40,803 nucleotides of DNA from Proteromonas lacertae (taxonomy: Eukaryota): positions 62,001-102,803 of the forward strand of contig NGBS01000025.1 of NCBI GenBank assembly GCA_002245135.1. The letters run 5' to 3'. Both the position numbers and the translations under genes were made by a program. Below the pieces are notes generated by a model, which saw nothing but the letters and a program-made list of their open reading frames with translations, did not search any database and was not told the origin of the DNA. Shown here piece after piece: positions 6,750-32,769 of this stretch (the first letter of the stretch is position 1; each line of letters opens with the position of its first letter).

Positions 6750-6791
6750 AGATTTAAATATATAGGTAAATTAAATAATCTTCTATTGATC

Positions 6792-7535
6792 TTAATATAT
6801 ACTTACATTCCTAAGACCTAATGGAGAAGATATTTGATATGAATTAGGAATATATTGCGCACATTTATATTTTAATCTACCTTTAGGAATTGGTTTGTAA
6901 AAATTAAATCCATATTTTGTCATTAATGATGGTACAGGATTCTCTATAGCATACATATACAATTCAGAAAATTTGCATTTGCATATACTATTTATTCTAT
7001 AAGAAGATTCATCACCAATAATAATCCACAAATCTGCAGTAAATCTATGTAAAAATAAACCTATAACGCCATGAATATCTTGATAATTATGTCTTATATT
7101 CTTTAAATGAGGTTTAGCATAATCATAGAATAATTTTAGATAATCTGTTTTAGTTTTATTGCATACTTTAAAATTGTTAGGAAATTTTAAACAATCATAT
7201 CCATTATTATTTATATCTATATATATTTTCTCTTCACAATGAAAAATATTACTATTCATCCAAACAGGAATTGCTATATCAAAGTCATTATCATTAGGAA
7301 TGAAACCTCCGTTTCTAAATGCGCCTAATAATGAACCATCAATTAGAAAATATATGACGTTAATTTCTTTTAATATATTATATATTAACTTAGCTTTATA
7401 ATTGTCTTTTCGATTAATGTTCAAATATTTCTTATTTCGACTCCATGAGCAAATGTTGTTAATTTTATTATATCTCTCATAAAGTTTCATGCATATTATA
7501 AATAGTAGCATAATATAAAAATAGTATTTGTACAT
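6792..7535 (-). CDS. LicD/fukutin-family phosphotransferase
   Basis: YFLIDGSLLGAFRNGGFIPNDNDFDIAI motif and NPVPSLMTKYG; N-terminal anchor. Confidence 0.88.
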   Translation of the reverse strand: MYKYYFYIMLLFIICMKLYERYNKINNICSWSRNKKYLNINRKDNYKAKLIYNILKEINVIYFLIDGSLLGAFRNGGFIPNDNDFDIAIPVWMNSNIFHCEEKIYIDINNNGYDCLKFPNNFKVCNKTKTDYLKLFYDYAKPHLKNIRHNYQDIHGVIGLFLHRFTADLWIIIGDESSYRINSICKCKFSELYMYAIENPVPSLMTKYGFNFYKPIPKGRLKYKCAQYIPNSYQISSPLGLRNVSIY

Positions 7536-7810
7536 ATGTTAATAATTATTTAATTATATAATTTTATTTATATACTTTCATGATTCTTTTTATTACTTCT
7601 TAATAAACAAGTGATATTTTTCTTTTTTTACTTAAACATTATATAAGAGTAAAACACATTTCATTGAATAAACCTCCTCAAATGTTCATAGCTTAACATA
7701 ACTATACTTAATAAGCATAGTTAGTATTATCTAAAATAGACAAAAAAGCTATTCAATAATTTCAAATAAGTAGAAAGGTAGAATATTATATTGTTAGATA
7801 AAATCTATAT

Positions 7811-8068
7811 TGTTGTGCGTCGTTTGTCATATTTGGCCATTTGTCTACCAGACACTTTTAAAACAAACTAAATATATATTCTTACTTGTCTTGATTAAAA
7901 ATTGTTACTTTTATACTTACTTTGTTATTTGACCTACCTCTGCAGTATACTATTTTGTTAATATAAATAGTTTGAATATTTGTGCCGTTTGTTTTCTAGA
8001 AATTTTTGAAGCCAACTAAATGCATATTTAGCTAATATAGACTAAAATACATTAGCTGAAATGATTAG
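7811..8068. repeat. Third (solo) copy of the MITE terminal inverted repeat
   Basis: Near-identical to 2982-3238 in the same orientation; no matching opposite arm found nearby. Confidence 0.9.
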
Positions 8069-8434
8069 CCAAAGTTTGCACTTTTTTGAAGATTTCTCAT
8101 TCATTAGTTACTCTATAAAGAAACTAAACCGAGATTTCATCTAAACATAATTCATAGAATTTTTTGAAGCTTTTAGTTAATTAATAATTCGAAATCAAAT
8201 TAATTGAATTAGCATATAGCTTACATACGAAGCTGAGACTTTTTTTATAAATAAGAAATACAAAGATGCATAAGAATATTTACTTATAATAAACGAAAAC
8301 CCTCTAGAAATTCTTAAAATGGGTATCATAAACACAAAAAAAATAAAAAGAAATACAAAATATAATCACAAAAAGAATAAAACAAAAAAGAAAAGAAAAG
8401 AAAAAAGGAAAAGGAAAGATGTAAAACTGACAAA

Positions 8435-8635
8435 TCATACATCAATATCTCTTAAAACCATACTGTAGACATCGTGGATTACATGTTGAACATCTTTATA
8501 ACACTCGCTAGTTGATATATTAGAAAAAGCATCGGTTATCCTTTGAAGTGTTTGATCATGGTTAAGAAAAGATGTAGTTTCAGCTCTTGTTTTCTATAGA
8601 TCAAAAATCATTTCTATGGGATTTAGTTCAGTACT
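8435..8635 (-). pseudogene. Tc1/mariner-IS630 transposase C-terminal remnant
   Basis: Hand translation STELNPIEMIFDL*KTRAE...QRITDAFSNIS matches the SPELNPIExxW motif carrying the catalytic E; contains an internal stop. Confidence 0.75.
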
Positions 8636-8944
8636 TTAAAAATTCTTCTCTACAATAGGGATTGTTAAAGTTTACGTAATGTAAAGACTATTAATAATAT
8701 TATTTATATCAATATGTTATACCATGATAGAAAAATATAATCTTATGATAGTTTATAGTGTATTGGAAATAAAAAACACGAATTAAAAAAAAGAAGGCTT
8801 GAAGGCTCGAAATTGTTTTTAGCAAAAAATAAACTGTTTTTTGAGAGCAATCCAGTCCAAGATTAAAGGCTTGAATTTTATATTACAAAGCTCGTAGAAT
8901 ATTCTGCAAAGCACTGTAATGTTAATATATAAAAAAATTATGAT

Positions 8945-9748
8945 ATGTCTATTAAAAGAAACAATATAATATTTACAATATTTTGTACTTTAATTTTATT
9001 ATTATTATTTGAATATAAGAATAAAGCACAATATAATTTGTTAATTTTTGCACTTTCATGTGACAGAGAATTATTTTTGAATATTACGCTTCATAGTTTA
9101 TTTGAGCATTTTAATAAATATGAACATCATATTTGTTTAACTATATACTATTCTGATAGTGGTACAATAAATAGAAATCACTATATAAAGAAATTCAACC
9201 TGCAAAACATATTATATATGAACCCAAGCAACGTAAACTACATATATAGAATAATATATTCATTGTTATACATGAAGTATGTATTATTCATTGAAGATGA
9301 TAGACCTTTTATTAATAATATTGAGCAACATATTATTTATAGTAATTATATTGAAGAAGGAATTGCTATTCTAGAAGCAAGTAATTATATTTATGGAATT
9401 ACTTATAAAAACGATATCGAAACTGATATAAAAACAATTACCATAAGAAGTAATTTAGGTTTTCATATGTTATGCATAGCAACAAAACCAAAAGAAGATT
9501 ATTATTATGTAAATGCACCAACTTTGTATAAAACTGAATATTTGAAATTGATAAAAAATTATGAAAGCGAATTTACATCTGCAAAATTCTTTAAGAGTTT
9601 AAAAAAATACTATGGCTTTACATATAAGAATATTACTTGTAAAAATAATTCATTTTCTGTAAAATGCCAAAGCGTATCAAATCATCTTGATACAAAAAGG
9701 ATATATTCAACAAAAGGAAATAAGAGATGTAGAAATTATATGTATTGA
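8945..9748 (+). CDS. Putative GT-A fold (GT2-like) glycosyltransferase
   Basis: N-terminal TM, LSCDRELFLNITLHSL, YYSDSG and YVLFIEDD motifs. Confidence 0.65.
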   Translation: MSIKRNNIIFTIFCTLILLLLFEYKNKAQYNLLIFALSCDRELFLNITLHSLFEHFNKYEHHICLTIYYSDSGTINRNHYIKKFNLQNILYMNPSNVNYIYRIIYSLLYMKYVLFIEDDRPFINNIEQHIIYSNYIEEGIAILEASNYIYGITYKNDIETDIKTITIRSNLGFHMLCIATKPKEDYYYVNAPTLYKTEYLKLIKNYESEFTSAKFFKSLKKYYGFTYKNITCKNNSFSVKCQSVSNHLDTKRIYSTKGNKRCRNYMY

Positions 9749-10151
9749 CTTATTTTACAAAACAAGATTTATTATTTTATACCTTTTGTTGAATATATCA
9801 ACTAATCATTTAAACCATTATTCTGAATATGAATCACTCAAGGATATATATTGCTATAGAATCTCATAATATATCTATTATATTATAATTTCAATTAGAA
9901 TATTCTATATCAATTTCATCTAAAAAGAATTTTATAGATCTACATGTATATATTACACATTTTCTTATTATGAATGTATCTATAATATTAAGATGTTCAA
10001 TAATTAATAGAAATAAGAAAAAAGCTATTGTTTATAATTTAGTTCACCTTTTTGATTTTTGTTTCATTCATCCTATTCTGTCAAAGTTAGGTTTATTTAA
10101 AGCAGTTTATTTAACAAGCAAATGAAGCGGAAAATACCTATTCATTAGAAT

Positions 10152-11174
10152 TTGAAGATTGATTTTTCATTTCTTTTATTCTTTTTCATTCTTTATTATG
10201 TGCTTGTGAATATATCATTGTATTATTTAAAAGAAAAGTTTACTTATGTTAATTGCAAAATATTCAATAGTTTCGACTATAACAAATATTTTGTTCCTTT
10301 ATGTAACTATGATAAGAAGCATAAATCTATTATTACTTATGGATATTATAAAAATAACAATAGCAACAGATATATCTATCAAAGAAAGGTCATTTATAAA
10401 AATAAAGAAGCAATTATAAAGGCATATTCGTTTTTAAATATCAGTCTGAGCAAAATAATTATAGAAAAGAAGTTATTAAGTTTATGCATTGTTACTGTAT
10501 ATAAAAATCTAAACATAAATAATTTATTAAGAGCATGTTTATTATATTTGAGATTAGGAGTAGATCATATAACTATATACGTAAGCTATTACAATATAAC
10601 ATTCAAAAGGCAATATAGTTGGCTAAAAAAGAGAAAATGGATAGATATTATTTACTATCCTTTTCCAAATATATCTTTCTTTTATTATGGACAAGATTCA
10701 AAACTAAATCATTGTATTAATCATTATAGGTATATAACTGAATATGTAATTATAACTGATGTAGATGAAGTTATTGTTCCACAACATAATAACAACATAT
10801 TAGATGTAATTAATAGTTATGGTAAAGATAATTATGTATTTAGTTTTAATTCAGTAGAATATAGTGTAAATAACGTTTATGATAGTATATTTAAGGCAAA
10901 TAAAATCGGATGTATATATAATAAAAGTTATGAAAAAATGATAATAAGACCTGAAAAAGTGACTAGTATTGGTGCTCATTTCCCAAAATTATGGGAGAAT
11001 AAGAAAATATTAGTTTATGTAGATGTGAAAGATGCTTATGTAAGGCATGTAAGGAGGAAATTAAATAAGAATAAATGCTATGTAATGAAAGAAAATAATA
11101 TATTGCAATCACATATAAAATATATAGAAAGAAATATAATTTCAATCTTATCAAATAAAAATTTAGTCACTTAA
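10152..11174 (+). CDS. GT92/DUF23-family glycosyltransferase
   Basis: LSLCIV, LGVDHITIY, GQDSKLNHCINHYR, YVIITDVDEVIVP and KMIIRPEKV motifs; N-terminal TM. Confidence 0.8.
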   Translation: MKIDFSFLLFFFILYYVLVNISLYYLKEKFTYVNCKIFNSFDYNKYFVPLCNYDKKHKSIITYGYYKNNNSNRYIYQRKVIYKNKEAIIKAYSFLNISLSKIIIEKKLLSLCIVTVYKNLNINNLLRACLLYLRLGVDHITIYVSYYNITFKRQYSWLKKRKWIDIIYYPFPNISFFYYGQDSKLNHCINHYRYITEYVIITDVDEVIVPQHNNNILDVINSYGKDNYVFSFNSVEYSVNNVYDSIFKANKIGCIYNKSYEKMIIRPEKVTSIGAHFPKLWENKKILVYVDVKDAYVRHVRRKLNKNKCYVMKENNILQSHIKYIERNIISILSNKNLVT

Positions 11175-11195
11175 AATAGTGAAAAGTAGATAGAA

Positions 11196-12239
11196 ATGTT
11201 ATTTTATATTTTTTTATTCTTATTTTTACTAATCTATACTTTTATTATTATTATTAATACACATAATGAATATAGTATGTATTTGATAATGAAAAAAAAT
11301 TTGAGAAATATAATATCTAGTAATTTATATAAGAAGTTATTTTTAAATTGTAATATTATTTATAAAGGTAAGACATTATATCGTTTTAGCGCTATACATC
11401 GTTATGCTTATGTAAGTTTTTTAACAAATGGTAAATATATTAAACTAATTAATGGAACACTATATTCAGTTCATTTTTTCTCTATTTATCCCATTATATT
11501 ATATGTATCAGGGAATATAAATGATGAAATGTATAGTATTTTTAAATTGTATGATAGACTAATAGTATATACAATTTCTTCAGAGCTGAAAAGTGTATAT
11601 TTTATGAAATTAAGAGCGTCATTATTAGCTCCTGTTTTAGTTGGACAAATTGTCGAAGGAGATACAATCGTTCTTCCTGGAGCAGATTGTTTATTTAAAA
11701 GAATAGAAAAGGAAATAAATAGTAAGTATTACTACCCTATGATGACAAGGCATCCAGATTTTCGATCTACTAGAAAAAGCAATACTACAATGAATCCATT
11801 AAATTATCCGATGAATAAACGAACAATGAGATATATGCATGCTCATATGTCATGGACTTATTATTCATTACCTTTTATAGCTAATGTATATATGAAATCA
11901 TATTCATATAATTATAGTGATGATGAATATGCTATGAATATAAATCTATGGGAATATAAAGCTTATAAACAGTGGTGTACATATGATCCTTACTATTCAA
12001 TTGTGGATGTAAGTAATAACAGTAGAGTATTTAAAGATATGCCATACAGCATTACTTTTTTTAATTTTATTCATGGATGCAAATTAAAACATCTTCAAGA
12101 TATTTTACTACTAAAGTTACAGATGCTTAAATCCAACAAAATAATATATTCAATGAATAATAATATAATGTTCACAAACTCTTGTAAAATCTCCACAAAT
12201 ATAAAACTATTTACATATACGGAAAAATGTCTAATATAG
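11196..12239 (+). CDS. Type II membrane protein, probable GT-A glycosyltransferase
   Basis: N-terminal TM; SVHFFSIYPIILY, VEGDTIV (ExD), DDEYAMN and late FIHGCK fit a GT-A layout; family not assigned. Confidence 0.5.
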   Translation: MLFYIFLFLFLLIYTFIIIINTHNEYSMYLIMKKNLRNIISSNLYKKLFLNCNIIYKGKTLYRFSAIHRYAYVSFLTNGKYIKLINGTLYSVHFFSIYPIILYVSGNINDEMYSIFKLYDRLIVYTISSELKSVYFMKLRASLLAPVLVGQIVEGDTIVLPGADCLFKRIEKEINSKYYYPMMTRHPDFRSTRKSNTTMNPLNYPMNKRTMRYMHAHMSWTYYSLPFIANVYMKSYSYNYSDDEYAMNINLWEYKAYKQWCTYDPYYSIVDVSNNSRVFKDMPYSITFFNFIHGCKLKHLQDILLLKLQMLKSNKIIYSMNNNIMFTNSCKISTNIKLFTYTEKCLI

Positions 12240-12309
12240 CAAGAATATATAAACTTTTAATAATAGGATTAGTATTATAAATTATTATATATATGTAAAG
12301 TTATGACTA

Positions 12310-13212
12310 ATGACGCTATTATTATTTATGTATATAATCCTATTGTTTGAGTTTATTTTTTATTGTAATAATTCAATTACTTATGTACAAATTTCAGCAG
12401 CATCATTATCATATTTTATATATTTACCAATTGTTGTACGAGCCTGGAATTTATTATCATATAGAACATTAATAATACTTTTATATCATAATTTGAGTAA
12501 AGAAATAATAAATATAAAACTTATTTTAACTAAAATAGGTTCAGAAGTGATATTGACAAAAATAAATGATTCAGTATCTCTTCATTATGCATCAAAACTA
12601 TCAAGAATTTATGGATTTATGGTTAGTATAAATTCAAAATATAATGATTATTTTTATATATCTGATGCTGATATGATTCCAATATCAAAATCATTTTTTG
12701 TAGATACTCATTATAATAAACTTACTATAAAATCATTTGGTCCAAAAGGATATGGTTATGGTAATAATAGAGGAAGATGGGCTATGTGTTATATGGTTGC
12801 AAATAAATTTGTATGGATAGATATACTTCAAAAAGATCTAAAAGAGAGAGAATTTAGTAAGCTTATATCATATAATATAATGAATATAATACAAAAAGGT
12901 GAAAAATATTATGAAAGCTTTTTATATGTTGATGAAGTATATTTAAGAGATAAAATAAAAGGCTGGAGTAGATTCAAATCTAATATACTCTTTCATCCCA
13001 GAAATTATAATAGAACTAGAATAGATAGATCAGAATGGCCAGTAAATATATCAAAAACTAATAAGAATAATATAATTGATATTCATCTTCCTAAACTACC
13101 AACTATAAAATATGAATTAATAAAAATGTGGGAAAGAAACATTATTCCTTTACAATATTATCTATTTAACACTGTACCATATGGAACAGACTACATAGAA
13201 AGTATTTTATAA
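12310..13212 (+). CDS. Putative glycosyltransferase-like protein (DxD)
   Basis: N-terminal TM; YLPIVVRAW, YISDADMIP, RWAMCY, RIDRSEW and DIHL motifs. Confidence 0.55.
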   Translation: MTLLLFMYIILLFEFIFYCNNSITYVQISAASLSYFIYLPIVVRAWNLLSYRTLIILLYHNLSKEIINIKLILTKIGSEVILTKINDSVSLHYASKLSRIYGFMVSINSKYNDYFYISDADMIPISKSFFVDTHYNKLTIKSFGPKGYGYGNNRGRWAMCYMVANKFVWIDILQKDLKEREFSKLISYNIMNIIQKGEKYYESFLYVDEVYLRDKIKGWSRFKSNILFHPRNYNRTRIDRSEWPVNISKTNKNNIIDIHLPKLPTIKYELIKMWERNIIPLQYYLFNTVPYGTDYIESIL

Positions 13213-13259
13213 ATAATAAAAGAAATTAACTATATATATGTATATAATGATATACATAT

Positions 13260-14078
13260 ATGTTAGTATTTTATATAACATTGTATTTTATTATTTTTTT
13301 TTTAATATTTTTGAAGAATATAAAATTAAAACTAAAATCAAAGTATGTAATAGTTACAGGTGCATCTGAAAGCCATGAATTATCGTTAATTCAATTCTTA
13401 TATTATTGTACAAAGCATTTAAAGAATGTAATTATTGTTGTTTGGGATTTAGGCTTTTCTAATAGCTTTATAAAATCAATGAAAGAAATTATAATAAATA
13501 ATGAAAATATAATATGTAAAAAGTTTATTTATTCTCAATATCCATCATACTTTAATATTAATATTCAAAGAGGTGAATATGCTTGGAAGCCTGTTATTAT
13601 TAAAAAAACATACTTTATGTATAAAAAAGACATTATATGGCTTGATTCTGGATGTATTATGACAAATAATTTAGATAAAGTAATTAGTGATATACACAAA
13701 TATCATTGTTGGTCTATTTTTTCAAGTGGAACAATAAAAAAATGGACTCATGTAGGTATGATAATATACTTTAACGTATCAAATAATATAACGATGAGAA
13801 AAGTATGTTCTGGGGGAGTAGTAGGTTTTAAGTGGAAATCAAAATTATCTAAAGTTATATTAGATAAATGGGTAGAATGTGCATATAATAAAAATTGTAT
13901 AGCACCATTAGGTTCAAATATAAGCAATCATAGGCAGGATCAAAGTGCACTATCAATATTACTATATAAATATAATATATTTGATAATTGCCCAATTAAT
14001 TATTATTCAATAACAACACATAGAGATTTAAATAATATAAATACAGCTAATTTATTGCTAAAGAAGTTAATAAGCTAA
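13260..14078 (+). CDS. DUF1647-family putative glycosyltransferase
   Basis: IVTGASESH, WDLG, EYAWKPVII, IIWLDSG and NHRQDQSALSILL motifs. Confidence 0.8.
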   Translation: MLVFYITLYFIIFFLIFLKNIKLKLKSKYVIVTGASESHELSLIQFLYYCTKHLKNVIIVVWDLGFSNSFIKSMKEIIINNENIICKKFIYSQYPSYFNINIQRGEYAWKPVIIKKTYFMYKKDIIWLDSGCIMTNNLDKVISDIHKYHCWSIFSSGTIKKWTHVGMIIYFNVSNNITMRKVCSGGVVGFKWKSKLSKVILDKWVECAYNKNCIAPLGSNISNHRQDQSALSILLYKYNIFDNCPINYYSITTHRDLNNINTANLLLKKLIS

Positions 14079-14112
14079 ATCTTAAAACTTTTGCATTTAT
14101 ACATATATATAA

Positions 14113-15191
14113 TTACTTGAAATAATTGAGATGAAGATAATTATGTCCTATATATTCTATATTATCATATTTGCACTTACTAAAATATGATCCAAAAAGA
14201 GAAAATGTGCTTCCTCTAGTTAGTATTAAGTATTCTGAATTTCTCATTATCATGATATCTTCAAGTGATTTATTTAAACATTCTATTTTTCTACTATGGC
14301 ATGGTAGATTATAATCAGTATATATTGATTTTCCTAATTCTTTTTTGATTTTATGCTTAACAAAATATGAATCAGAAAGCAATACCACTATATTTAGTTT
14401 GTTATTTTTAATTGTCTTAATTAATGATGATATTTCTGTAATGTTTAAATACCTTTTGAATGGTTCTTTATCTGCATCACCAACTCTTAAATGAATGGTA
14501 GAATACTTCAAATTCATTGATATATGAAATCTCTCTCTAAAATGTTGAATTATTATATTTCTATATTTTATTGATGGCTTTAAATATACTTCACATATCT
14601 TTTTATTAACTTCTCTAATTTTAAATGATAAGGTGTTATTATATGTATATAATAATCCCTTTGCTTTGAATAAATAATTAAATTCATAATTCTTTAATAT
14701 TTGTTCTGTAGAATACCAGTGTTTATCTGCTCCTATTATATCATTAGAAGATTTAATAGCTGCAACACCATCTGTAAAGAATGAGACATTAAAGAACTGA
14801 ATATAATAGTAATTTATAGGAAAATCAAAATAATTCCATAATAATTTCCATGAAACTATTATTACTATAAAGACTTCCATTATACTAAATAATGATCTAT
14901 TTGATAACAAAGATACGAGTATTGAACTAACAATTTGAAGTAATGAATTTCCTAATCCCTACAGAATATTAATATCAATACTCCCAAATGTACTTTATCA
15001 TAAAATACTTTTCCTTTACGAGTTATATAATAATCATGTGTTTGATATGCTTGATATTTTATGTTTATCAACAGACTTTCATAATAATTCTTTATGTTTT
15101 TATTACACTTGGTATAATTTATAACAATAATAAATATCGACATAAATAATGTTGTTACTATGTAGAGAAAATTCATTCTATATAATTTCAT
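14113..15191 (-). CDS. Fucosyltransferase-like (GT11/NodZ-type), 2 exons; intron 14959-14981
   Basis: A 23-nt GTATT..GTAG intron joins the TM exon to GLGNSL; HLRVGD, LLSDS and GSTFS motifs follow. Confidence 0.8.
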
Positions 15192-15193
15192 TT

Positions 15194-16590
15194 TTACCAA
15201 TGTTCTATATATTCATAGGTATTATCTGATTGTTTTATATTCCCATTTTCAAAAAATATAGAATTTGCTGACAAACCAACTGTGCTTCTTAATTCATCTA
15301 TCAATCTAATTACATTACTCTTTCTTGTTCCTGAAAAGCTATTACAATATAATGCTGCTTTTATATCAGCTATAAAGTTCAATGTCATTTCATCTCCTCT
15401 ATTTAGATTACCACTTAAACCGTCATTTTTTCTTAAAAATTTTAGATAAACAGTTTTAGCAATCTTTCTTTCATTAAAAAATAATGTAACATTAGGATCG
15501 TCAGTTGATAAATATATTTGTGTGTTACAGCCTGTAGTTAACTTGTGTATGTAATATGATGATATATAATCTTCCGAATTTAATAAAGTCATTTCTTTAT
15601 ATTTATCACCATGCCTTATCCATAAATTAAAACACCCTCTACTCAAATCTTTTCCCAATGATTTTCTTACAATATTGTTTGTTTCAATTTCCGTTCTTTT
15701 ATTCAACCTAAATATATAGGTAGAGCCTTGTATTCTCCAATAATGTATATATTTATTTCTATCTATTGGTGCTTCTTTTATTATTTGTATAATTTTATGT
15801 GGTATAATTTTTTTGTAAGTTTGAACATTTTCCACATATAAATGTTTTTCTGTCTGATTAATACTTACATATTCTTTAGAGTTTACTAAATCATAATATG
15901 ATAAACTACAGTTTGTTAATTGTTCTAAAAAACACAGCCAATTCAATTCTTTTAAGCAATATTTTCCATATGCTTTCAATGATTTAAAATAAGGATCAAT
16001 TATAGCAATCCGATTTGTTGATAGTGCTAATGACAAATAAGATGTGAATACGTGTATTTCTGCGCCATGCCCAGCACGAAATCCTTTTATTATTAAGTAT
16101 TTCTTATCAATACAATTCATAGGATGTTGATAATTATAAATATAAGACTGAACTTTATATGTATGTGTAATAATATTTCTAAAGTTAAATTTATTGTTAG
16201 GTATAAGTCTATAATACGATGAATCAGGAAAAGATCCTTCCACAGATATAATTTTGTTATAATTATTATTAGAGTACAATCTGTGGTAAAAAACAGAATT
16301 ATTTACTTTATATAAATTCATTTTCTTTAAAAAAATACAGAATTTGATATTGGTATTGATTAGCATATCATTCCATAAATCTTTTCCATATTTATAAGCA
16401 TTTATAGAATAATTTATACATTCTGATTTGTTATTGGATAAACATTCTTGATAAAAAGAATAAGAGTTATCACAATAATGTATGTCAATTATATTTAAGA
16501 AAAATATAACATATAATGCAAATATTGTATATATAAAGCCAATAAATAAACAATGAACAGTTATTATTAAAGATTTAAATGATATATAAT
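15194..16590 (-). CDS. alpha-1,6-fucosyltransferase-like (GT23/FUT8-type); frame open upstream of ATG 16366 through a TM segment
   Basis: QHPMNCIDKKYL, AGHGAEIH, WIRHGDKYKE, IYLSTDDP and GTRKSNVIRLIDELR motifs. Confidence 0.8.
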
Positions 16591-17602
16591 ATTATATTTC
16601 TTATACTATTTTCTTGTATTATTGCCTTTTATATTATTAAATATAACTCATATGTTTCTATAGTTACAAATATGAATAATATATTTTTAAATAGCATATA
16701 TTCTGTCAACACCTTTGTTACTGCTGGTTTAGGTAATAGATTAATGTCATTTGCAGGAATAATAGCTATTTCTATATATTTTGATTATAAGCCTAAAAGT
16801 ATTATGGTAGTTATATTAAATAGTTGAAAACTGGAACGAATTCAATATTTTCTATAATGTTCCTAACTATAATATAACAATTAGTAGCAACAAAAATGTT
16901 AAGAGATATATGATATGTCCATTTAATATAAGAATGATAGAAGAATTAAAAAGAGAAAAAGATTTATATTTCTGGTACATCTGGTGTGATACAATATCGA
17001 GTTTAATAACAAATAATAAATATTTAACGAAAATAAGTAGGTATATTCCTAAAACACAATTTGTGTCTAAATCAAATATAGTCTTTAATTTATATTATCA
17101 AATATTTAATTCACTTCTTCATATAAATAACAATATACAATCATCAATAAATCATTTCATTTATATGAATAATATTCATGATTATTTAGGAATTCAAATA
17201 AGGGTTGGCAATGCAGATTTAAAAGAAAAAGAATTTACTACAATTGATGATATATATATCATATTAAATTTGGCATCTAAACATAAAGAATATAGAAATT
17301 GGTTTTTAACAGGAGATTCTTATAAGCTTAAAATAGAATTGAAAAAGAAGTATAGCAATATTATCCTATATTCAATAAATAAAACAAAACATTATAATAT
17401 TTATAAAAATGACTCTACTATTGTAATAGAACATGAACTATTGTCAAAGTCCAAATTTTTTATTATATCAAAAAGCACTTTTGGTTTAACAGCTTTATTA
17501 AAATCTGGTATATTGATAAATAAAGGCATAAGAATAGGTTTTGAAATTAAAAATGGTAATATTTTTGATGTATATACATACTTCAATGATTTTTTAAAAT
17601 GA
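16579..17602 (+). CDS. Fucosyltransferase-like (GT11/GT37/NodZ-type), 2 exons; intron 16799-16823
   Basis: AGLGNRLMS in exon 1. A 25-nt GT..AG intron restores the frame to GIQIRVGN, FLTGDS and STFG. Confidence 0.8.
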
Positions 17603-17777
17603 TGAATAAATACTTCATCATTATTTATTTTTAAGTTGAATTTTCAAAAATCAAACATTTTGATATTTAATTTTATAGCAATTCTTCCAATAGTTAAATT
17701 TAAGGAAAATTATTTATTATTTATCTTAAATATAATTATGAGAATTTCATATAGTATATAAATGTGGCACAAAGTGT

Positions 17778-17825
17778 CAGAGTCCCAACGAGTTTTCTAG
17801 GGGTCTGTCCACTTCTAGATTTAGA
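17778..17825. repeat. Left copy of 48-bp imperfect direct repeat
   Basis: CAGAGTCCCAACGAGTTTTCTAGGGGTCTGTCCACTTCTAGATTTAGA; 39/48 identical, ungapped, to 20813-20860. Confidence 0.85.
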
Positions 17826-18063
17826 CCAATGTATAGCTATACTAGGTCCAATACCGAGAGAATCAGCACTTCCTTTTACTTGAAGGACACTGGTAAGTAC
17901 GACCTATGCATACGAAGCAGTGATTGTGAAGGTTATTCAACTCAAGTGTTCCTTCAACAAACACTTGATAGCAAGGTAATATCTCTTAACGATGTTACGG
18001 TCTTTTAATTACTTGTCTTCTTCTTCTACTATGATCTGTATCTGTATCTGGGGGTTCAGTTAC

Positions 18064-19308
18064 TTATACTATCTCGATGATCCCGTTCTCACTGATCTTT
18101 AACAACCTACCTGTCACGATGAAGAAGTAATGGGTAACATTCTTACTAGTGAGTGCATCGTTGTACATCTCAAAGGAGACCTTGATATCATTATCGAGAG
18201 GACGGCCACGCTGGTTCTTGATGTTGGTTAAGTCCGAGGTGGTAAAGTTAAGGATCTCAAGGAACTTCTCATTGAAGGGTAGGTCAATTGCCTGGTCATT
18301 GTAGCTACCCTTGATGAAGCTCTTCATGTGCTCGTAACTATTGTAAGTCTCCATGTTTTGGAAGTCAGGGTTGTAGTTAAAGTCATTGATCCACCACTTG
18401 AACTTAGAGGTCATCGCAGCAGGCAGAACATTACCTTCCTTATCATAGCATCAGTAAAGGATGAACTTTACGTAAGGTCCGATGGAACTATTGATATTGA
18501 AGGAGTAGTTGAAGCAGCTGGAGCTGTTACTTACTTGAGTTCTAACAACATGGACATCGTTGAAGTCCACAGGATTTGCAAGCAATGTCCTTGTTGTAGT
18601 TGGCCTTGAAGTAGATATCTCAAGACTTACCTTAGTCTCATCCTTTAGTGTAGCATCAACGATGTCCACCATCTTACCTTTGTCTTGCCATCGTATAGAG
18701 ATGTAAACCTTCTCCCCGAAGTAGACATCAATAGGAAGACTGAGGATGGTGTTAAACAACTCCTTGCAAGGGATCTTCATAAGCAAATCGAAGGCATCTC
18801 CATCTATTGTTTGTTAATAGTCATAATCATCATTAGCACCTCCCGTGAACTTCATTCCATTTTCAAGGACCTTACCTTTCTTATCAATCCAGACTCCATC
18901 GTAGTACATCCCATGATGAGCCATCTTACTTGCCTTACGCATAATCTTAGTCATGATACCTCGGAAGATCTCGTAATGCTCTTGAACCTTTAACAAGGAT
19001 ACTCCCGATTGATTGTAGACATGGATACTTCCAAGGACGAAGGTATCAGCTAAAATAACTTCCTTGAGACCAGCTGCTTCTACATATAGTCGATATTGTA
19101 AGTGGGACTTAGAGAAGTTTATAAAGTTATCCCCGGCAATCTCTAAGGTGACTTCATCGCTAAGACAATCCTTAGTAATCTCTATTCGTTGTACTTGACT
19201 TGCAACTAAAGGGATGAGTTGATCGAGAGCTACTTAGGGTTGCACTTCATCGATGAAGTCATGTTCCTGGGAGATGATGGAGGATGGACCAGTATGGATC
19301 TTACTCAT
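18064..19308 (-). pseudogene. Major capsid protein homologue (Polinton-like virus type), 414 codons with three in-frame stops
   Basis: ORFs 18996, 18786 and 18414 share one frame with ATG 19308. Stops lie at 19234-36 (TAA), 18814-16 (TAA) and 18451-53 (TGA). Colinear similarity blocks match 39807-40803. Confidence 0.75.
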
Positions 19309-19329
19309 TGTGATATTCAGGAGGTAATA

Positions 19330-20813
19330 AATCACTTTGGGAAATAATGCAATAGCATACTTACACTTTACGATAAGGCTTCTTGTTGAGTTCATTCTGT
19401 TGTCTCTTACTTAATCGAGCATACCCACAGGATTCCTTAAAGGACTTCTCTTGATTGAGTATGTTGAATAGAAAGTAGACTGATAAGAACCCGATGATAA
19501 TCAGCTTCTTGTAAGTTGCCTGTGACAAGTCCAGGTGATGTGCTATCCTGTTGATCTTAAGTAAGTACGGGACTCTTCCACTTGCACTAAATCTCTTGAG
19601 CTGTTGTAGTTGTTCTGAAAATTAAAGACTCCCAAGTACTGTCCATTGAAGTTCTGATATTCTTGGGAGATCAATAGATTGAGTTCATCTTTCACTTGGC
19701 TTCTTACTTCCTCGGGACACTCTTCTATGAACTCTTCATCATCATCATTGTCATCATTGTCAGTCTCTTTGGAATAGATGATTCCTTTACCTATCCTGAC
19801 TTTACTAGGAGCTGAGTCTGCTGTGTAGCTGTACTCGTATTGTGGTACATGATTACTTTGCCCTGAGTCTATCGGTAGTGTTGTGCTTGCTGGAGATGAT
19901 GAACCTGATGCAAGGTACACTGCTTCAAGAACTTCAGCTGCTCTAAGTACGTGGATCTTTGATTGTCTTGGATTGCATTTCCATGAACTCCATTGCCAGC
20001 TACGAGGTCTAAGTTGTTCTATCCTCCGATCTCTAAGCTTATGCTATCTACCATGGAGTTATTCATCTGGGTTAAGTTCTTGTTGCCTGATGCTTCTATC
20101 ACGTAGTTGACAACCTCTTGATACTTCTCCTTGAGCTCCTGGACTGATAGTTGATTCACCATCTCGTTCCTTAAGTAGCTGCTGGAATAGTTAACTCCTC
20201 CTAAGTTGATACTATCGGTGGTGACTTCTCCGATCATAGCTAATAGACCTCGCTTCATCTCCATCTCATTGTTAGGGATTACCATCACAGGTAAGCTTTG
20301 TTCCACGGGAAGAAAGCGCATCTCGACTCTTAGTTGTTGAACCATTATTCTTGCAATCCTCTTGTAATCATCTTGAGCACTTCCTGTTGCTGATCGGAAT
20401 AGAACTAGTTAATTCTCATATGGTTATCATATAAGTCATCAACTTCATCATACCACTCCTTAGATAAGTCTTCAAGGTGTAAGTCATTCGCTGGTTGTTG
20501 TGGACTGGAGATGTAATCTATTAGCTTATAGATGGTCATGGTAATTTGCTTAAGGAAAAGAATCATTGAGAATTGCTTATGCTCCGAAGGAGCTTAAGTA
20601 TGATATCAACATTGCCTGTTAATTGATGGCTCCACCTCTGGCTATTCCTCCACAGTGTTTTCTAAATCCTATCTTACGAGCAACGACAGCTACTTGTTGT
20701 TGTCCTAAGGCATCAGCAGCATTGTAAATGATCTTCTTGTCTTGTAGGAAGTAGACCCCGTAGGAGTAATCCTGTAGGCGTCTTATATAAATATGACTAT
20801 GGTACATTGTCAC
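19330..20813 (-). pseudogene. Degraded ORF(s) of unknown function upstream of the island capsid gene
   Basis: Consecutive fragments 20813-20619, 20345-20019 and 19920-19543 share the codon style of the capsid gene; includes an acidic DNDDNDDDEEF tract. Confidence 0.5.
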
Positions 20814-20860
20814 AGAGTTCTAACGAGTGTTCTTGAAGTCCGTCCCCTTCTAGATTCAGA
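20813..20860. repeat. Right copy of 48-bp imperfect direct repeat
   Basis: CAGAGTTCTAACGAGTGTTCTTGAAGTCCGTCCCCTTCTAGATTCAGA. Confidence 0.85.
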
Positions 20861-20994
20861 GTTGACCTTTACAAGGCCTTCATCGATGCAATCGATTTCT
20901 GTATAAATAAACAATATAAACATTAAATATAAAATGAAAGAAATGCTTATTAAATATCATTATAATGTGAATTACTATGTGATTGTAAAACTTC

Positions 20995-22059
20995 ATGAAA
21001 ACTAGAACTATATTCTATTTTTTCATATTTTCTTTAACAATTATGATTATTAGCTTAAATTGCAATCATTCATTAGATTTAATGATAATAATAGTTCCAT
21101 CAGATTCTTACTACATTTATATGATTAAGAATTTTTATATCACTAATATAATAAGATATAATCTCACTTATATGTTTAAAGTTGTAGCATTTACCTATAA
21201 TATGTATATATTATGCAAAGAAATGAATATTCCAGTTGATAAAATGGATAAATATATCTTAGAAGATAATAATTCATATAAAATAAATTCACCTAATTTT
21301 ATCAAAAAAACAAGATTAAAACATCCTATTGTGTATAAATATTTAAAAATGTATCAAATTGTACTATTTATTGATGCAGATATATATTTCTTTAAAAGTC
21401 CTTTGTTATTATTAAATTACTTTAACAAAGATTCAGAATTGATGATGCCTTGTGATAATAAAGCATGCACTATACTAAACTATGGATATTTGTTAATTAG
21501 AAATACGAAAAACGCTCTTAGATATATAGCTGAGCTTATATCTCTAGAAAAGAAATGTAAATTATATACGTGGGAATATGGGGAACAAGGAATTGCTAAT
21601 AAGCATTTACATTCAATACATTACTTAAAAATTCAGCGAATGCAGATAAATACATTTATGGATGGACTTAATTTCTTTAATAGTTATTCATTTAATTTTG
21701 ATATAACAAAAACAAAATTATTAGGATTTCATAATGATTTTACTATAGGTATTTATTCAAAATTGTATCGATTAAAAGAATTGAATCTTTATTTCTATGA
21801 TAATTACCAAAACATTAATGATTATAATTATTTATATTATATTGGAAAGACAAATTATAACATCAATATTACTTTAAAAATATTATCTTTCCTTGTGTAT
21901 CTAAGTAAAATGCTTAATAGAACCATTATATTACCAAGGTTTCAGTGTTTTAAGAAGAAATTTTGTACATTTGTTGATTTATTCAATTTAGAATGCTTCA
22001 GATCATGCAATATAAAATATGTAGAAAATATATCATTTTTGCTATATATTTGCTTTTAA
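20995..22059 (+). CDS. Nucleotide-diphospho-sugar transferase (GT77-like)
   Basis: N-terminal TM, VLFIDADIYFFKSP, LNYGYLLIR, EQG, KLYRLKELNL and LNRTIILPRFQC motifs; true 3' end uncertain. Confidence 0.75.
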   Translation: MKTRTIFYFFIFSLTIMIISLNCNHSLDLMIIIVPSDSYYIYMIKNFYITNIIRYNLTYMFKVVAFTYNMYILCKEMNIPVDKMDKYILEDNNSYKINSPNFIKKTRLKHPIVYKYLKMYQIVLFIDADIYFFKSPLLLLNYFNKDSELMMPCDNKACTILNYGYLLIRNTKNALRYIAELISLEKKCKLYTWEYGEQGIANKHLHSIHYLKIQRMQINTFMDGLNFFNSYSFNFDITKTKLLGFHNDFTIGIYSKLYRLKELNLYFYDNYQNINDYNYLYYIGKTNYNINITLKILSFLVYLSKMLNRTIILPRFQCFKKKFCTFVDLFNLECFRSCNIKYVENISFLLYICF

Positions 22060-22361
22060 AGTATCTTAACATTAGATAATCGAGATACAATCATATTTTA
22101 TCAAGCGTTAATCATAGTGTAACTTACATCAATAATTATCTTAATTTATCTAGTAATTATAAATCGCAAGTAATAGTGTTCAAAAAAATTGATATAAACA
22201 GTTGTAACTTTACATACAAATGTATTGTTAAAGATAACAATTGGCAAAAGAGATATACTAAATGTATATAACTATAAATTTATAAAAAGATACACTAAGA
22301 CAATTCTTTAAAAAATCATTATCATTAATATTAATTACAAGTTAGCTTGTATAATGTATAG

Positions 22362-23561
22362 ATGCGATATATAGGAGTTGATATTTTTTTAATAATATCT
22401 GGTTATTTCAATATACAAAGTATCATAAAATATAAATCGCGATGCTTGTATTTAACAAAAAGATTATCAAGATTAATTCCTTCATCATATATTGTGCTAT
22501 TGTGTATTTTATTATATTCAAATATGATTAGCAATTACAATATATTATATATTATGAAGGATTTACAATACTGTTTATATCAAATAATGAATATCATGTT
22601 GTATAAAAAATCTATTAACTACTATTCACAAGATTATAAAACAATTCTATTACATTACTGGTCATTATCATTAGAATGGCAATATATTGTTCTTTCTTGT
22701 TTGATATATAACAATATAACAATATATATACGTATTGCAATCATTCTTATTTCTATATTTTCCACTTTTTATTATAGTACTAGGGATATTAGTTTTACAT
22801 ATTTTAGTATAGTATGTAGAATATGGGAATTTATTATAGGAGAATTATTCTATATAAATCACAAAAATAATCAAAAGATGTTAATACCATCATTTATTAC
22901 TCTTATTCTTATAAGCATTATTAAAGCTTCTAGATTATTTATACTTATACTACTTACTGCATTTATGATTATATTTCTAATTGAAATAAATAACAATTCC
23001 ATCTTTAGCTTATTTATATTTAAATATTTAGGAAATATGTCTTATGTGTTGTATTTAACTCATTATCCCTTACTAAAATTATCAAAAAATAATACTTTTA
23101 TGAAAATATTTATATTTTCTTATTTATTGAATTTCATTGAGCAAAGATTTAGTTTATTTTGTAAAACAAGTGCATATTTTATCATCACATATATATCTAT
23201 AACAATCATATTTTCATATTTATGTTACTTAATAGATAAAAATAATCATAAAACATTAACAAAAGTAGTTGATATGCACAATTTTTCAAATTGTGACTGG
23301 TATAGCTTAAATAAATTGTATGTCAGTAAAGTTTGTATCTTTAATACAAAACATATTATAAAATCTGATATCTTGTTATTGGGTGATTCACATTTGCTTG
23401 CATGGTTAAAAGTCATTAATGATTTACATTTATCAAAATATCCTTTAATTTTGGTAAATAATTATATTGAATCAATATGTAAAAAAGAACTAAAATTTCT
23501 ATATCAACTGCTTATAAAAATATATAATATTATTTTCATTTCTCATTATTTACATAAGTAA
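22362..23561 (+). CDS. Second AT3-SGNH O-acyltransferase paralogue, possibly truncated
   Basis: GVDIFLIISGY, KRLSRLIP, LLHYWSLSLEWQY, RIWEF, LGNMSYVLYLTHYP and LLLGDSH motifs. Confidence 0.85.
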   Translation: MRYIGVDIFLIISGYFNIQSIIKYKSRCLYLTKRLSRLIPSSYIVLLCILLYSNMISNYNILYIMKDLQYCLYQIMNIMLYKKSINYYSQDYKTILLHYWSLSLEWQYIVLSCLIYNNITIYIRIAIILISIFSTFYYSTRDISFTYFSIVCRIWEFIIGELFYINHKNNQKMLIPSFITLILISIIKASRLFILILLTAFMIIFLIEINNNSIFSLFIFKYLGNMSYVLYLTHYPLLKLSKNNTFMKIFIFSYLLNFIEQRFSLFCKTSAYFIITYISITIIFSYLCYLIDKNNHKTLTKVVDMHNFSNCDWYSLNKLYVSKVCIFNTKHIIKSDILLLGDSHLLAWLKVINDLHLSKYPLILVNNYIESICKKELKFLYQLLIKIYNIIFISHYLHK

Positions 23562-25604: not shown

Positions 25605-26087
25605 TTGATTTTCGCGCCAACTCCTTTTCAGCTACTGAATTACTCGTTACTGAAATATTCAGACATAACTGGTATAAAGCCAGAGAGACTCAGAAAGATG
25701 ATCCGAAAGTTACAAAAAGGAGAAGAAATCGATAAAGTGAATGTAAGCAAAGGCAAAATGAGACCTCTGGGGAAAAGTGATGGAGAGATCTTGTTAGAAG
25801 AGATCAAAAGAAACAATCGAGCAACGTTAAGACAACTTCAAGAAGCTATTAAAGCTAAAACGAATAAAGTAGTGTCTATAAGCACAGTTCAAAGAACATT
25901 AACAATGTATATGAAGAGAGATGTATTGCCAACAATTACATTAAAGAGGTTCATAAGCAGAGGATCAAGAGTTTGCGAGATAAATAATCTAAAGGAAGAG
26001 AGAAAAATAGTAGTTCGAAAATTTTTGGCATATCTAGAATCAGGTTATCGTCCCATCTTTGTGGATGAGTCACATTGGATATCTTAA
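25605..26087 (+). pseudogene. Tc1/mariner-IS630 transposase N-terminal half (HTH plus first catalytic D)
   Basis: NNRATLRQLQEAI...VSISTVQRTL (HTH) and RPIFVDESHW; truncated immediately afterwards. Confidence 0.8.
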
Positions 26088-27688
26088 TCATTTCATATTA
26101 TATTTTACAACCCTGGTTATTGTTATTGCTATTACCTATATTAAATATTTAAACGTATACAAGCACTTTATATTATGATGCAAGATATAATATAATCGGA
26201 ATATTATGAACAAATCTTTAAATTAAAATATGGTAATTATTATAAATATTAGATACAGAAAGAGATATTTAACGTGGTGCTTAACCTCTCTTAGAAACAA
26301 ATATGATGCAATAACTCAATTTAATCAAACAACACATCGTGCAATTAAATTTATAGTTAAATATATTATTATTAATATTCTGATATAGTCAATTGTATTA
26401 TTGGATGGAAAATGATGAAGTTTGTAACATGAAAATACGTGGAAAACTTCTTCAATTAAATAATTTCTTCTATAGAACTATTAATAACTCAGAATATATT
26501 CAAATTATATATCGCTATCAAAATTTATAAAGAAAATAGAATAACACCAAATGACTATAATATACTACCAAAAGTTATGGACTTCAGCATTTATAAAGCA
26601 AAAAATAGTTGTACAATTTCTGTTGTACAAAAAGCATATTCAAAATTTATCATAAAACCTAATGCATATACAAGACATACTAGACATCTATCACATGGGT
26701 TGAGCAAGGCAAATTTTATTTATATTTTATAAACACATAATTATTCTAATACTGATATGTCCTTTTTGTTTTATGTCCTTTTTTCGTGTCTATTCTGAAC
26801 TTATGAATAATCATAATTTAAAAGGGTTAGGGTTTCTAAGAGAGGTTATTGTAATTTTTGTATATCATTATAATAAAACTATTTGAATTTAGGTTTTCTA
26901 GAAGTAGATATTTTTTTTAATGTCGGGATAATAATAGTATCATGGTTTGCTTCAATAGTTTTATTATATATTGTTTCACATTTGATATAATATAACAAAA
27001 AATTGTATTTAGCTATTATTAATAATACGTTATTGTTTCAGTGTGTGAATGGAAGCTATTCACGAATGATTCATATTTTTCATTTTTCTCAAGAATTTAG
27101 TAATTTATTATTATTAATGGTAATATCATTTTTTTCGTTAAACGACTGGAAAGATTTATTCCTCCACTTTCTATTCTTACATTATCACACATAAGAAATG
27201 TATCATACAACTTCTATTTATTTCATTACATAATAATATTTATTATTAATGAGTTTAACATTAAATCAAAAAACATTTTTGTATGTTTTTTATTCGTTTA
27301 TGTTATAGCATATGTATTTACAGAATATTATGGAAAACCAATTTGAAAAAAAGTAACCAATGCATTTATACAAGCTACTTTCATTCTATTTCTCAATTTA
27401 ACTTTAATAATATTAATTAAACGTTTAATTAATATATGTATAACTGTAAGAATATCACTGTAGGTGCGTACCAGACTATTCTTAGGTGCCTTCTACAGGT
27501 AAGAATAAGCGATTTGAGTGTAAATTAGTTTTTGGTACGGGTTATACTGGAGCAAGTGGTGAATTTAAAATTGTGTATATATTTTTGTGTATGAGTAATT
27601 TTATGGGTTAAAATATTTTCTTTTGTTTTTTGTATATAATTTCATTTAACTTTTTCTTATTGTTTTTTATCAATCATAATTTCAAAAA

Positions 27689-28042
27689 ATGTCAAGAATT
27701 TGGATCGAGAATGTTAATATAGAAGATAGAAATAAGCGAGAAGATGAAGAATTTGAAAGAATCTATGCAATTATTGAAAGTGAAGTTGCTAGAATAGTAG
27801 CTCAACCATCACCACCATCACCTCCAGTAGTAATGTGGTATACATCTGATACAGCTGATGAGGATGATAGAAAGTATGAAGAATGGCGTGCAATTCATAA
27901 ACCAACTAGAGTAGCACAAGCAACCATACGCCCTAGAAAATGGGTTGATCCTGAAGAGGAGCGCAGAAAAACAAAGATGTTAAAGCGTTATGGCATTGAT
28001 GAAAAAAACATCATTGAAGAAAGACTAAGATTTCATAACTAA
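27689..28042 (+). CDS. Hypothetical viral protein (117 aa)
   Basis: Intact ATG ORF with charged composition and an A-rich leader shared with ORF 29297. Confidence 0.65.
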   Translation: MSRIWIENVNIEDRNKREDEEFERIYAIIESEVARIVAQPSPPSPPVVMWYTSDTADEDDRKYEEWRAIHKPTRVAQATIRPRKWVDPEEERRKTKMLKRYGIDEKNIIEERLRFHN

Positions 28043-28170
28043 TTCTTATATCATTGGTTTTAATTGAATTTTTGTTATTTGATTGGCTGAATAGAAATAA
28101 ACATAATATTACATAATTCTTTTCATTCGTAAATTTCTTGTGATTTTTGAAATAATCTGCATAAATTAAA

Positions 28171-28727
28171 ATGAGTGATATACAAAATGAACTCGATGTT
28201 AGTATTGAAAAACAAGATGAAATGCCTGATGTAAAATCATTAATTATTAAAGTATTTAAGGATATGTTGGATGGTATGTATTCTGTGATTGAAGAGTATG
28301 AAGATGATCCAAAATGGAGTAAACAACCAGGTGATGATATTGATATAACAATGGAAGAAGAAGAAGTGAAGGAAGAACAAAGTGAATCTAAATCTAAAAA
28401 AGAAAGGATATAACAAAGTCAGATCCAGATTCACAGATATGTAGTACTTGCGGTAAGAAGAAAGCTAATGATGAATTTGGTTATAAGAGTGAAGGTGTAT
28501 TCTATAAATCTTGTGCAGAGTGTAGAAATAAGAAGAAGAGAAGATATGAAGAAGGAAAGAAAGGAAGTGATAATAGTGGAGAAGATAAGAAGCGTAAAGT
28601 AGAGAATAGTTCCACTGCCGAGGGTCGACCAAAGGTAGAGGTTGCTAAAGTAGAAACACCTACAAGTTCTATCCCGGGGGTAGCTACAGTAGATCTATCT
28701 ACATCACCTACTTGTATAATTAATTAA
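28171..28727 (+). CDS. Acidic protein with CxxC...CxxC zinc finger (frame break near 28410)
   Basis: Downstream frame reads CSTCGKKKANDEFGYKSEGVFYKSCAECRNKKKRR up to TAA 28725-27. Confidence 0.6.
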
Positions 28728-28791
28728 CTTTTGGTTTAAAATTCATTTTTATATTTCTATACGTTTTTATATATAAATAATTTCACATAAA

Positions 28792-29119
28792 ATGTCATTT
28801 AATAATACACAATATTCAACTATGCTTAATGATATGAATGATACATTAACAAGTCTAAAGCAAGAAGGTCTTATATCATAGATATTGTCCAGCAGAAATC
28901 ACTGAGATATTAAATGAGCCAGAACCTGTAATAAATAGAGCTTTAGGTAAAACTACTATTGTTTCTGCTATTCCATTTACTTTAACACCTGAAAATAGTA
29001 GAATAAATTCCAGAAATGCTAGTGATAATGAAGATGAAGAACCATTAGAAACAGAAATAGAAATTATTCCTATTAATAAACCTGAGATTGAAATTCAAAA
29101 ACCATTCATAAATATTTAA
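28792..29119 (+). pseudogene. Small acidic hypothetical protein, broken near 28880
   Basis: ATG after CACATAAA; two fragments with protein-like composition. Confidence 0.45.
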
Positions 29120-29296
29120 TTTTATATAGTCTTTTTTCGTATTTGATTTTGAAAGTTATTTTTTGTACCCCCTTAAAAAATTACATAAAGAAAAACCGTT
29201 TTTTTCATTCACACTTTTCTTACTCATTTTCAGTATTATATTTTTTTCATTTTTTTACTTTAATAGAAAATTAATTATTCAATCATACAATCAAAA

Positions 29297-30468
29297 ATGC
29301 CAGCAGACAGAGTCAAACAACCAACCAATTCAGAATTATGCTCTCAGCTCCCATTAAAGGGACAGGCTTATGAGTTCTATCAGAAAGTGAGTCGTAACAT
29401 CCAGCATTTAAAGACATTTTGCGACGAAATGTATATTCAAAGTTTGGCTTATGATGACAGCAAAAAATCAAAGAAGAAGCAAAGTCCACCACAATTCAAC
29501 TATATCGAATTAGAGAAGTCAGCTACAGCAGTTAATTATTGCTTTTCATGTAAGTTTGATAATCAGAAGTTAATTCCCATTAAACATCTAGAAACATTAG
29601 ATCAAAATGAGTATATGAATTTATACTTTAGTGACGATGAGATGAAGAGTATAGTAAAACCAAATGTAAAACAGATTAAACCTTTTATTCAACCTCAGTT
29701 AAAACAACAACAACCACAACAAGAACCACCACCACCAACTGTACCTCAAAAACCTAAAAGAGTTTATAAAAGAAGAACTGATACTGTAAAGAAACCTAAA
29801 ACAAAAGCAGTTATTGATAGTGATGATGAATTAGTTCATTTAAAGAAAAGAAAGATTGTTAAGGATTCTGATTTTGTTGATGAAGAACCAATGGGTATAA
29901 TTGTGAAAGATAATGAATCAAGAACATCTGCTGATGATTTATTAAGTAGCCAAAGTCCTACCTTTACACCTCCAATGTCACCAAGGTCTGATACTACACT
30001 TCTTGATGTTACTGATATTGATATTCTGGATGGTGAATTGAAATATTTTAATGCTGAATTAACTAAAAAAGATGAAGAAAAACAAAAAGAGATAGAAGAG
30101 AAAATTAAACATCAAGATGCAGAGAGAAAGAAACAAGAAGATGAAGAAAAAAAGAAAAAACAACAAGAATAAGAAAGAGTTAGAAAAGTACAAGAAGAAG
30201 CAGAGAGAAAAAGAAAACAAGAAGAAGCAGAAAAGAAAAGAAAAGAAGAATTAGTGGTTATTAGAATGCTTCAAGAAGAAGAGAATATGAGACAACAAGA
30301 AGAGTTAAGAAAGAAATGGGTATTAGAACAAAAGAGACAAATGGAAGAAAAGATGAAAAAAGAAAACGATGAATTAGAAAAGAAAATGGAAGAAGAGTTT
30401 AAGAAGAGAATTGAAGAAGAGAATTGAAGAAAGCTGAAGAGTTTGAGAAGATGATGAAGAACTTATAA
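29297..30468 (+). CDS. Pro/Gln-rich and Glu/Lys coiled-coil viral protein; internal TAA at 30170-72
   Basis: 291-aa ORF; the same frame continues as E/K/R-rich coiled coil after the stop. Confidence 0.65.
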
Positions 30469-30604
30469 GTATTAATATATACTTTAAATTTGTCTGGTTT
30501 ATGCTTTAATCCATATACTTGAAAAAGCACTTTGAATTCATTACTTTGATGAAAATTGGTGTTTGTTTAATATGTTAAAAATAACATAAATAAAAACATA
30601 AAAA

Positions 30605-31765: not shown

Positions 31766-31833
31766 TCAAAACAATATATATAAAATATGAATGATATATA
31801 TTTAAAGAATTAATGAATTAAAATATAATTAAA

Positions 31834-32724: not shown

Positions 32725-32769
32725 TTCATATTTCCATTTTTGATTTATTTCGCAAATTCTGTCTATATA

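Follow-up and report, generated by a model that had tools for sequence, protein, structure and literature searches.

The locus considered here raises the question of how 3.1 kb of comparatively GC-rich, capsid-encoding DNA came to lie between two host genes of Proteromonas lacertae, and whether it represents a satellite or minimal virus. It is found in a stretch of 40,803 nucleotides from contig NGBS01000025.1 (assembly GCA_002245135.1, positions 62,001 to 102,803), which is referred to below as the window. The insert comprises 3,138 bp and is bordered by flanks with GC contents of 0.225 and 0.217 (Table 1). It occupies the spacer between two host ORFs, and the empty site obtained by removing the insert and one TATAAAT word is an ordinary spacer. 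Because both neighboring host ORFs are open, the insertion is cleanly intergenic. The insert is a real, bounded, dead viral insertion with a divergent capsid, and its junction structure fits a small circle.

The flanks, at 22% GC, are densely packed with ORFs of the glycosyltransferase, LicD, and acyltransferase type, and positions 3866-23561 feature a surface-glycan gene cluster with two acyltransferase-3 genes, LicD, galactosyltransferase, DUF1647, and nucleotide-sugar transferase, as well as several ORFs without any call in Pfam. Two short GT-AG introns of ~23-27 nt can be made out by eye in a gene close to the start of the window. These traits are those of a microbial eukaryote very rich in AT; a similar GC content of 21-23% is reported for tortoise-clade Blastocystis, in which the introns are described as longer and more variable (PMC12129017). 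An inverted repeat at 2976-3622 has arms of ~270 bp (91-96% complementary) and a 98-bp spacer, and a third near-identical arm copy at 7806-8068 lies 4.8 kb from this pair; by its sequence this family looks like a MITE. A Tc1/mariner-type transposase fragment of 35% GC is located at 25605-26087 on the plus strand (HTH_Tnp_Tc3_2, E 1e-4, below cut-off). Additionally, a decayed Polinton-type element of 28% GC extends from ~27600 to 40803, where it runs off the end of the window. The penton-like label of one of its genes follows in part a motif that is presumed here to mark pentons.

Table 1. Features of the insert, its junctions, the neighboring host ORFs and the resident Polinton (positions in the window).
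Feature	Position	Strand	Remarks
Left host ORF	16910..17602	+	Open to its stop; nothing above cut-off in Pfam
Left TATAAAT	17757..17763	+	Junction 7-mer and head of the left repeat; 9 nt in common with 20784-20792
Foreign insert	17764..20901	.	GC 0.409; removal with one 7-mer leaves a 247-bp spacer
Left repeat copy	17764..17825	+	Core 17778-17825; starts at the junction; 47/62 ungapped
Possible small degraded ORF after the capsid gene	17850..18038	-	3 stops in ~63 codons; weak signal, skipped by the frame-path model
Major capsid gene, broken	18064..19308	-	414 codons, full length; stops at codons 25, 165, and 286
Coding-like sequence	19300..20807	-	~1.5 kb in at least 5 pieces with at least 4 frame changes; no family or relative found
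Right (inner) repeat copy	20786..20860	+	Headed by TATAAAT 20786-92; core 20813-20860
Tail	20861..20901	+	41 bp with no significant left-end partner; two small hairpins, not significant
Right TATAAAT	20902..20908	+	On the GC transition; inner TATAAAT 116 bp to its left, next host ATG 87 bp to its right
Right host ORF	20995..22059	+	Nucleotide-diphospho-sugar transferase family, PF03407, E 6e-11
Integrase-like ORF of the Polinton	30605-31765	-	rve E 0.008, below cut-off
pPolB of the Polinton	from 32770	+	E 2e-14; broken after codon 919
Penton-like gene of the Polinton	38780-39790		Putative, by position and motif
Capsid gene of the Polinton	from 39807		Same family as the insert capsid

The presence of a capsid gene, proposed in an earlier sequence-only reading, is confirmed by homology and by the predicted fold of its family. 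A profile built from 35 listed relatives matches the gene end to end with an E of 1e-81, at pairwise identities of 26-36%. A search of 5.8 billion clusters with the capsid gave 1 match among 3,182 candidates, and 7 more clusters, out of 3,748 candidates, were reached from this first matching cluster, all of them unnamed and from Logan. The 35 listed sequences (P0002-P0015 and P0017-P0037) fall into these 8 clusters and derive from Logan assemblies only. No Pfam model was found for the three members tested, and no PHROG or NCBIfam model for the one member tested against each; the double jelly-roll capsid family is without a name. An AlphaFold model of the intact relative P0011, calculated from 14 sequences (pLDDT 59.8, pTM 0.57), matches the P3 proteins of PRD1 and PR772 (best E 8e-10), and also the mavirus and PBCV-1 capsids. 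The best match of P0011 among viral models is a MELD virus protein (E 4e-11, TM 0.49, 12% identity). The model of this relative, carried over through the family, predicts a double jelly-roll fold for the insert capsid. MELD viruses with unrecognizable virion proteins have been described in Blastocystis data sets (PMC8502044), and they are a possible context for this capsid family.

The three stops in 414 codons correspond to a decay of about 5% per site, with a 95% range of 1-17%, so that the insert copy is dead but not ancient. An alternative genetic code was rejected as the source of the stops, given that the terminal stop of the capsid gene is TAA where the relatives end and that one internal stop is TGA. 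A conserved family motif is absent from the main capsid frame and present in another frame at ~18619-18584, a candidate short out-of-frame stretch that a frame-path model chose at one of two penalties and that the profile placed weakly (E 0.1) in the gap. The motif in the other frame, the frame-path result, and the profile placement make a frameshift pair in the capsid gene likely.

The capsid gene has a GC3 of 0.51 and uses 28 AAG vs 2 AAA codons, and the GC3 of three Polinton genes and four host ORFs of the window is 0.15-0.19. In a tree, the insert capsid falls outside the nine other rows on a branch that is very long and whose exact place is unsure, and the Polinton capsid groups with P0002, P0012, and P0013 (100/99). 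Judged by the capsid sequences, the insert and the Polinton of the window are no more than distant relatives. The insert is not derived from this resident Polinton, an origin that was rejected on the basis of the distant capsid, the different codon use, and the lack of inverted repeats. The insert was likely adapted to a GC-richer host.

The broken frames could also have arisen in the assembly or consensus, through either a chimeric join or erroneous stops and frameshifts in an intact element. The Polinton in the window is broken as well, and most frame changes in the insert go in one direction, as one-base losses would. False breaks have been documented in multi-copy viral inserts, and lone capsid genes in protist assemblies are often pieces of larger insertions with stops that are assembly errors, but that report concerned short contigs and not host-flanked inserts (PMC10120064). 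Against such an artefact, many AT-rich ORFs of the host stay open over 250-400 codons and the flanks rejoin into a plausible spacer. A 7-bp match is, moreover, too short to misjoin an assembly graph, and an artefact is very improbable as the origin of the locus.

The insert had been described as capsid-only, which does not hold, as ~1.5 kb of broken coding-like sequence lies upstream of the capsid gene and about half of the insert is coding-like sequence other than the capsid. The minus strand carries all of the coding signal, which spans ~20800 to the capsid stop, and the last upstream piece ends in a stop that overlaps the capsid start. One upstream piece of 159 codons features the codon bias of the capsid gene (6 AAG, 0 AAA), and an acidic upstream piece is open and is without this bias. 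Introns were rejected by eye as the cause of the frame changes, since the candidates fit poorly and are not AT-rich like those of the host. The upstream pieces gave nothing above cut-off in Pfam, PHROGs, and NCBIfam, two stop-free pieces gave no informative match in the Atlas, and a longer-protein search with a 155-residue piece returned 0 of 483 candidates. The sole match in a library of 1.84 billion proteins, P0016 (E 3e-4; query one frame, 20807-19941), was rejected as a repeat protein matching an out-of-frame stretch.

Profile, motif, and frame searches recognized no polymerase, integrase, ATPase, or penton in the insert, in agreement with the original description. For pPolB and helicase-primase there was no Pfam, PHROG, or NCBIfam match above cut-off and no motif in the non-capsid frames, and 1.5 kb is too short for a pPolB like that of the resident Polinton. 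No RVE integrase or tyrosine recombinase was found above cut-off, in searches whose sensitivity is lowered by the broken frames, and no similarity to the integrase-like ORF of the window was detected. The six frames of the non-capsid parts have no Walker A motif of a packaging ATPase, no reverse transcriptase was matched in the insert, and no recombinase or Rep was found there. Comparison with the putative penton frames of the window gave no significant match among 684 pairs, although pentons diverge fast, and the lone predicted fold in this check had a pLDDT of 40.5. The absence of a replication or integration gene holds only to the sensitivity that the broken frames allow. Rfam gave a single match, below the gathering score.

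The direct repeats reported at the insert ends (17778-17825 and 20813-20860, 39/48 identical, ungapped, 3035 bp apart) were reproduced. This 48-bp repeat is beyond chance because the best 48-bp self-match in 60 first-order Markov simulations of the insert is 32/48. The supported repeat length is 62-70 bp, with 47/62 identical positions in the ungapped alignment of 17764-17825 with 20799-20860 and 76% identity over 70 bp by blastn (E 1e-7). A longer repeat of 115 bp from a gapped alignment was withdrawn, as its distal part is at chance, with a score reached by 59% of 3,000 random 55-mers. The repeats had been placed just inside both GC transitions; the left copy begins at the junction itself, and the right copy ends 41 bp before the right junction. 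No other copy of the repeat is present anywhere in the window, the Polinton sequence inside it included. A degenerate form of the repeat motif had no match among viral contigs, and an exact match to it in metagenome contigs (L001), with no coding similarity to the insert, was attributed to chance.

The TATAAAT words at both outer ends are present as described. The inner repeat copy is headed by a further TATAAAT, the single occurrence within the insert where 0.52 are expected in 3,138 bp, so that the left TATAAAT is part of the repeat and not simply a host duplication. The spacing from TATAAAT to the core is 20 nt in the right copy vs 14 nt in the left copy, and by simple arithmetic the chance of finding the inner word within 10 bp of the matching place is about 0.4%. 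In flank-type DNA (34 in 24,348 bp), the chance that a TATAAAT lies as close as 3 bp to the right junction is ~1%, the word being common in the host at about 1 per 716 bp. Within the inner repeat, a frame with a methionine start opens at 20807, and the inner-repeat region may not be wholly non-coding.

These ends bear on whether the insert is a terminally redundant or LTR-like unit, with end repeats that were identical at insertion and later drifted, and with TATAAAT as a true target-site duplication. The core divergence of 9/48, or ~9% per copy, is inside the decay range given by the capsid stops. The right repeat is not terminal, as the tail has no partner; a host-derived duplication leaves the inner TATAAAT unexplained; and neither a reverse transcriptase nor an integrase was matched. 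When identical 41-mers were decayed in simulation, scores as low as that seen were obtained in 2/3000 runs at 19% divergence, 13/3000 at 25%, and 95/3000 at 32%. The LTR-like reading fails because identical 116-bp terminal repeats that decayed as fast as the core would almost never leave the distal 41 bp so unlike each other, and the terminal redundancy offered in the sequence-only reading is improbable. A better reading of the insert ends is that a circle with two old repeats in tandem was opened at TATAAAT. Other end structures were searched for as well. The best score for terminal inverted repeats was 27, vs a null mean of 24.6 and a null maximum of 66. T-shaped or origin hairpins at the insert ends were rejected, with z of -0.06 to -1.94 over 8 folds and none significant, and no canonical rolling-circle nonanucleotide occurs in the insert. 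There is no poly(A) tract at the coding-strand 3' end, and a retro-copy of a viral mRNA was rejected on this ground.

The leading account, held at a little short of an even chance, is that the insert derives from a DNA circle of 3,145 bp that integrated through one crossover at a TATAAAT in common with the host. The suggestion of a small circular unit suits the anatomy, but not by way of terminal redundancy. Joining the outer TATAAAT words gives a circle of this length in which the genes run in one direction and the repeats are in tandem, 116 bp apart. The repeat copies would separate the end of the capsid block from the beginning of the upstream block, and they may be an old, already diverged control region, either an origin or a promoter. 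One crossover at the 7-mer would give the duplicated 7-mer, the left-edge repeat, and the unpaired 41-bp tail with no further event, and the insert would then have decayed in place. Because no recognizable replication, packaging, or integration gene is present, the circle would have depended on a helper virus or the host to supply enzymes. Either a tyrosine recombinase acting in trans or host microhomology repair could have carried out the crossover. Cryptons are reported to have short terminal direct repeats, a proposed circular intermediate, and recombinase cores of 6-8 bp (PMC3212892), and PLVs are reported to often carry tyrosine recombinases (10.64898/2026.06.19.733378; PMC11296320). The inverted arms round the 7-mer that a tyrosine recombinase needs were not seen by eye. 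The circle is favored by the coincidence of the left junction with the repeat start, the inner TATAAAT near its matching place, the right TATAAAT on the junction, and the ordinary empty site. Counting against it, TATAAAT is common, a linear fragment joined by repair at a staggered break could have the same junctions, and the decay range also permits 48-bp cores that were identical at insertion.

A possible, if tentative, alternative is the capture, at a double-strand break of the host, of a linear fragment from a larger and GC-richer Polinton-like virus. On this account, the repeats would be intergenic promoter-like motifs of the virus that flank one gene block, and the 7-mer duplication would result from microhomology annealing on the left and fill-in on the right. 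Such virus fragments are described as common in protist genomes (PMC10120064), and only two modest coincidences are needed. The capsid family is also linked to Polintons, with a member beside the pPolB and integrase-like genes of the window. On the coding strand, the inner repeat ends in a word that presumably corresponds to a TATA box. Against this account, each of the two breakpoints would have to lie, by coincidence, no more than 41 bp from a repeat copy, with the right breakpoint also hitting a TATAAAT (~1%), and no parent with a close capsid was found among the 3,182 candidates. An acidic tract followed by a similar short helix-like motif is observed in both the insert (19570-19830, minus strand) and the Polinton (38300-38706, minus strand). 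The likeness of the acidic piece to the Polinton ORF at 38706-38300 would suit a Polinton-like parent weakly, its score being reached by 94/5000 shuffles, but control frames from other parts of the window score at least as well (best 54 vs 49, among 720 frames).

If the insert did enter as a circle, two origins are considered for the circle itself. It may be a natural 3.1-kb helper-dependent virus or genome segment with a double jelly-roll capsid, a few small proteins, and no polymerase, ATPase, or integrase, which is unlikely but keeps the satellite or minimal-virus claim live as a minority reading. The other origin, in which a deletion within a larger Polinton-like virus would have looped out the circle, is regarded as distinctly unlikely. 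No relative with genomic context was found, and the insert is known as one broken copy. If natural copies have the same ends, eukaryotic double jelly-roll viruses would include capsid-bearing satellites or segmented genomes, and a eukaryotic double jelly-roll unit would be about five times smaller than Polintons and PLVs. The nearest approach to such a state is reported for prokaryotic groups of 7-11 kb without an ATPase (PMC5894146). A literature search at the level of titles and abstract openings gave no 3-kb eukaryotic double jelly-roll element of this sort, although supplements may list small capsid-bearing inserts, and the accessible part of 10.1101/2024.03.23.586382 has nothing on such an element. 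On the ordinary reading, the insert records a second, GC-richer virus lineage of the unnamed capsid family in a very AT-rich protist that already has a Polinton of that family.

Among known systems, Cryptons are like the insert in having a short direct repeat at both ends, no terminal inverted repeats, and a proposed circular intermediate (PMC3212892). The insert differs from them in that it has a capsid gene, no recognized recombinase, and no inverted arms that could be seen, and its end repeat is 7 bp vs 4-6 bp in Cryptons. It differs from LTR-like elements in the lack of full-length terminal direct repeats at both ends. CRESS DNA viruses are circles of about 3 kb, and the size and possible circularity of the insert are similar. 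The insert has no Rep or SF3 helicase match, Walker A motif, canonical nonanucleotide, or significant stem-loop, however, and its predicted capsid fold is a double jelly-roll whereas that of CRESS DNA viruses is single.

Prokaryotic viruses of the Odin group and FLiP-like viruses are, like the insert, reported to be small, with a double jelly-roll capsid and no packaging ATPase, but they are prokaryotic and the Odin-group contigs are 7-11 kb (PMC5894146). The insert, in contrast, has no PHROG or NCBIfam match, and its capsid family is Polinton-linked. The comparison with Polintons and PLVs, which like the MELD viruses are placed in the Preplasmiviricota, shows that the insert, at 3.1 kb, is smaller than Polintons, reported at 15-20 kb (PMC4028283; PMC11071308), and PLVs, reported at 14-40 kb (PMC12220804). 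Additionally, it has no recognized pPolB, integrase, ATPase, protease, or penton, and its repeats are direct and not inverted. The likeness is in the capsid. The double jelly-roll capsid used as the criterion for Polintons and PLVs is predicted for the insert gene from the profile match and the P0011 fold, and the same family occurs in the pPolB- and integrase-bearing element of the window. The insert falls outside the Polintons and PLVs and resembles the capsid module of a PLV.
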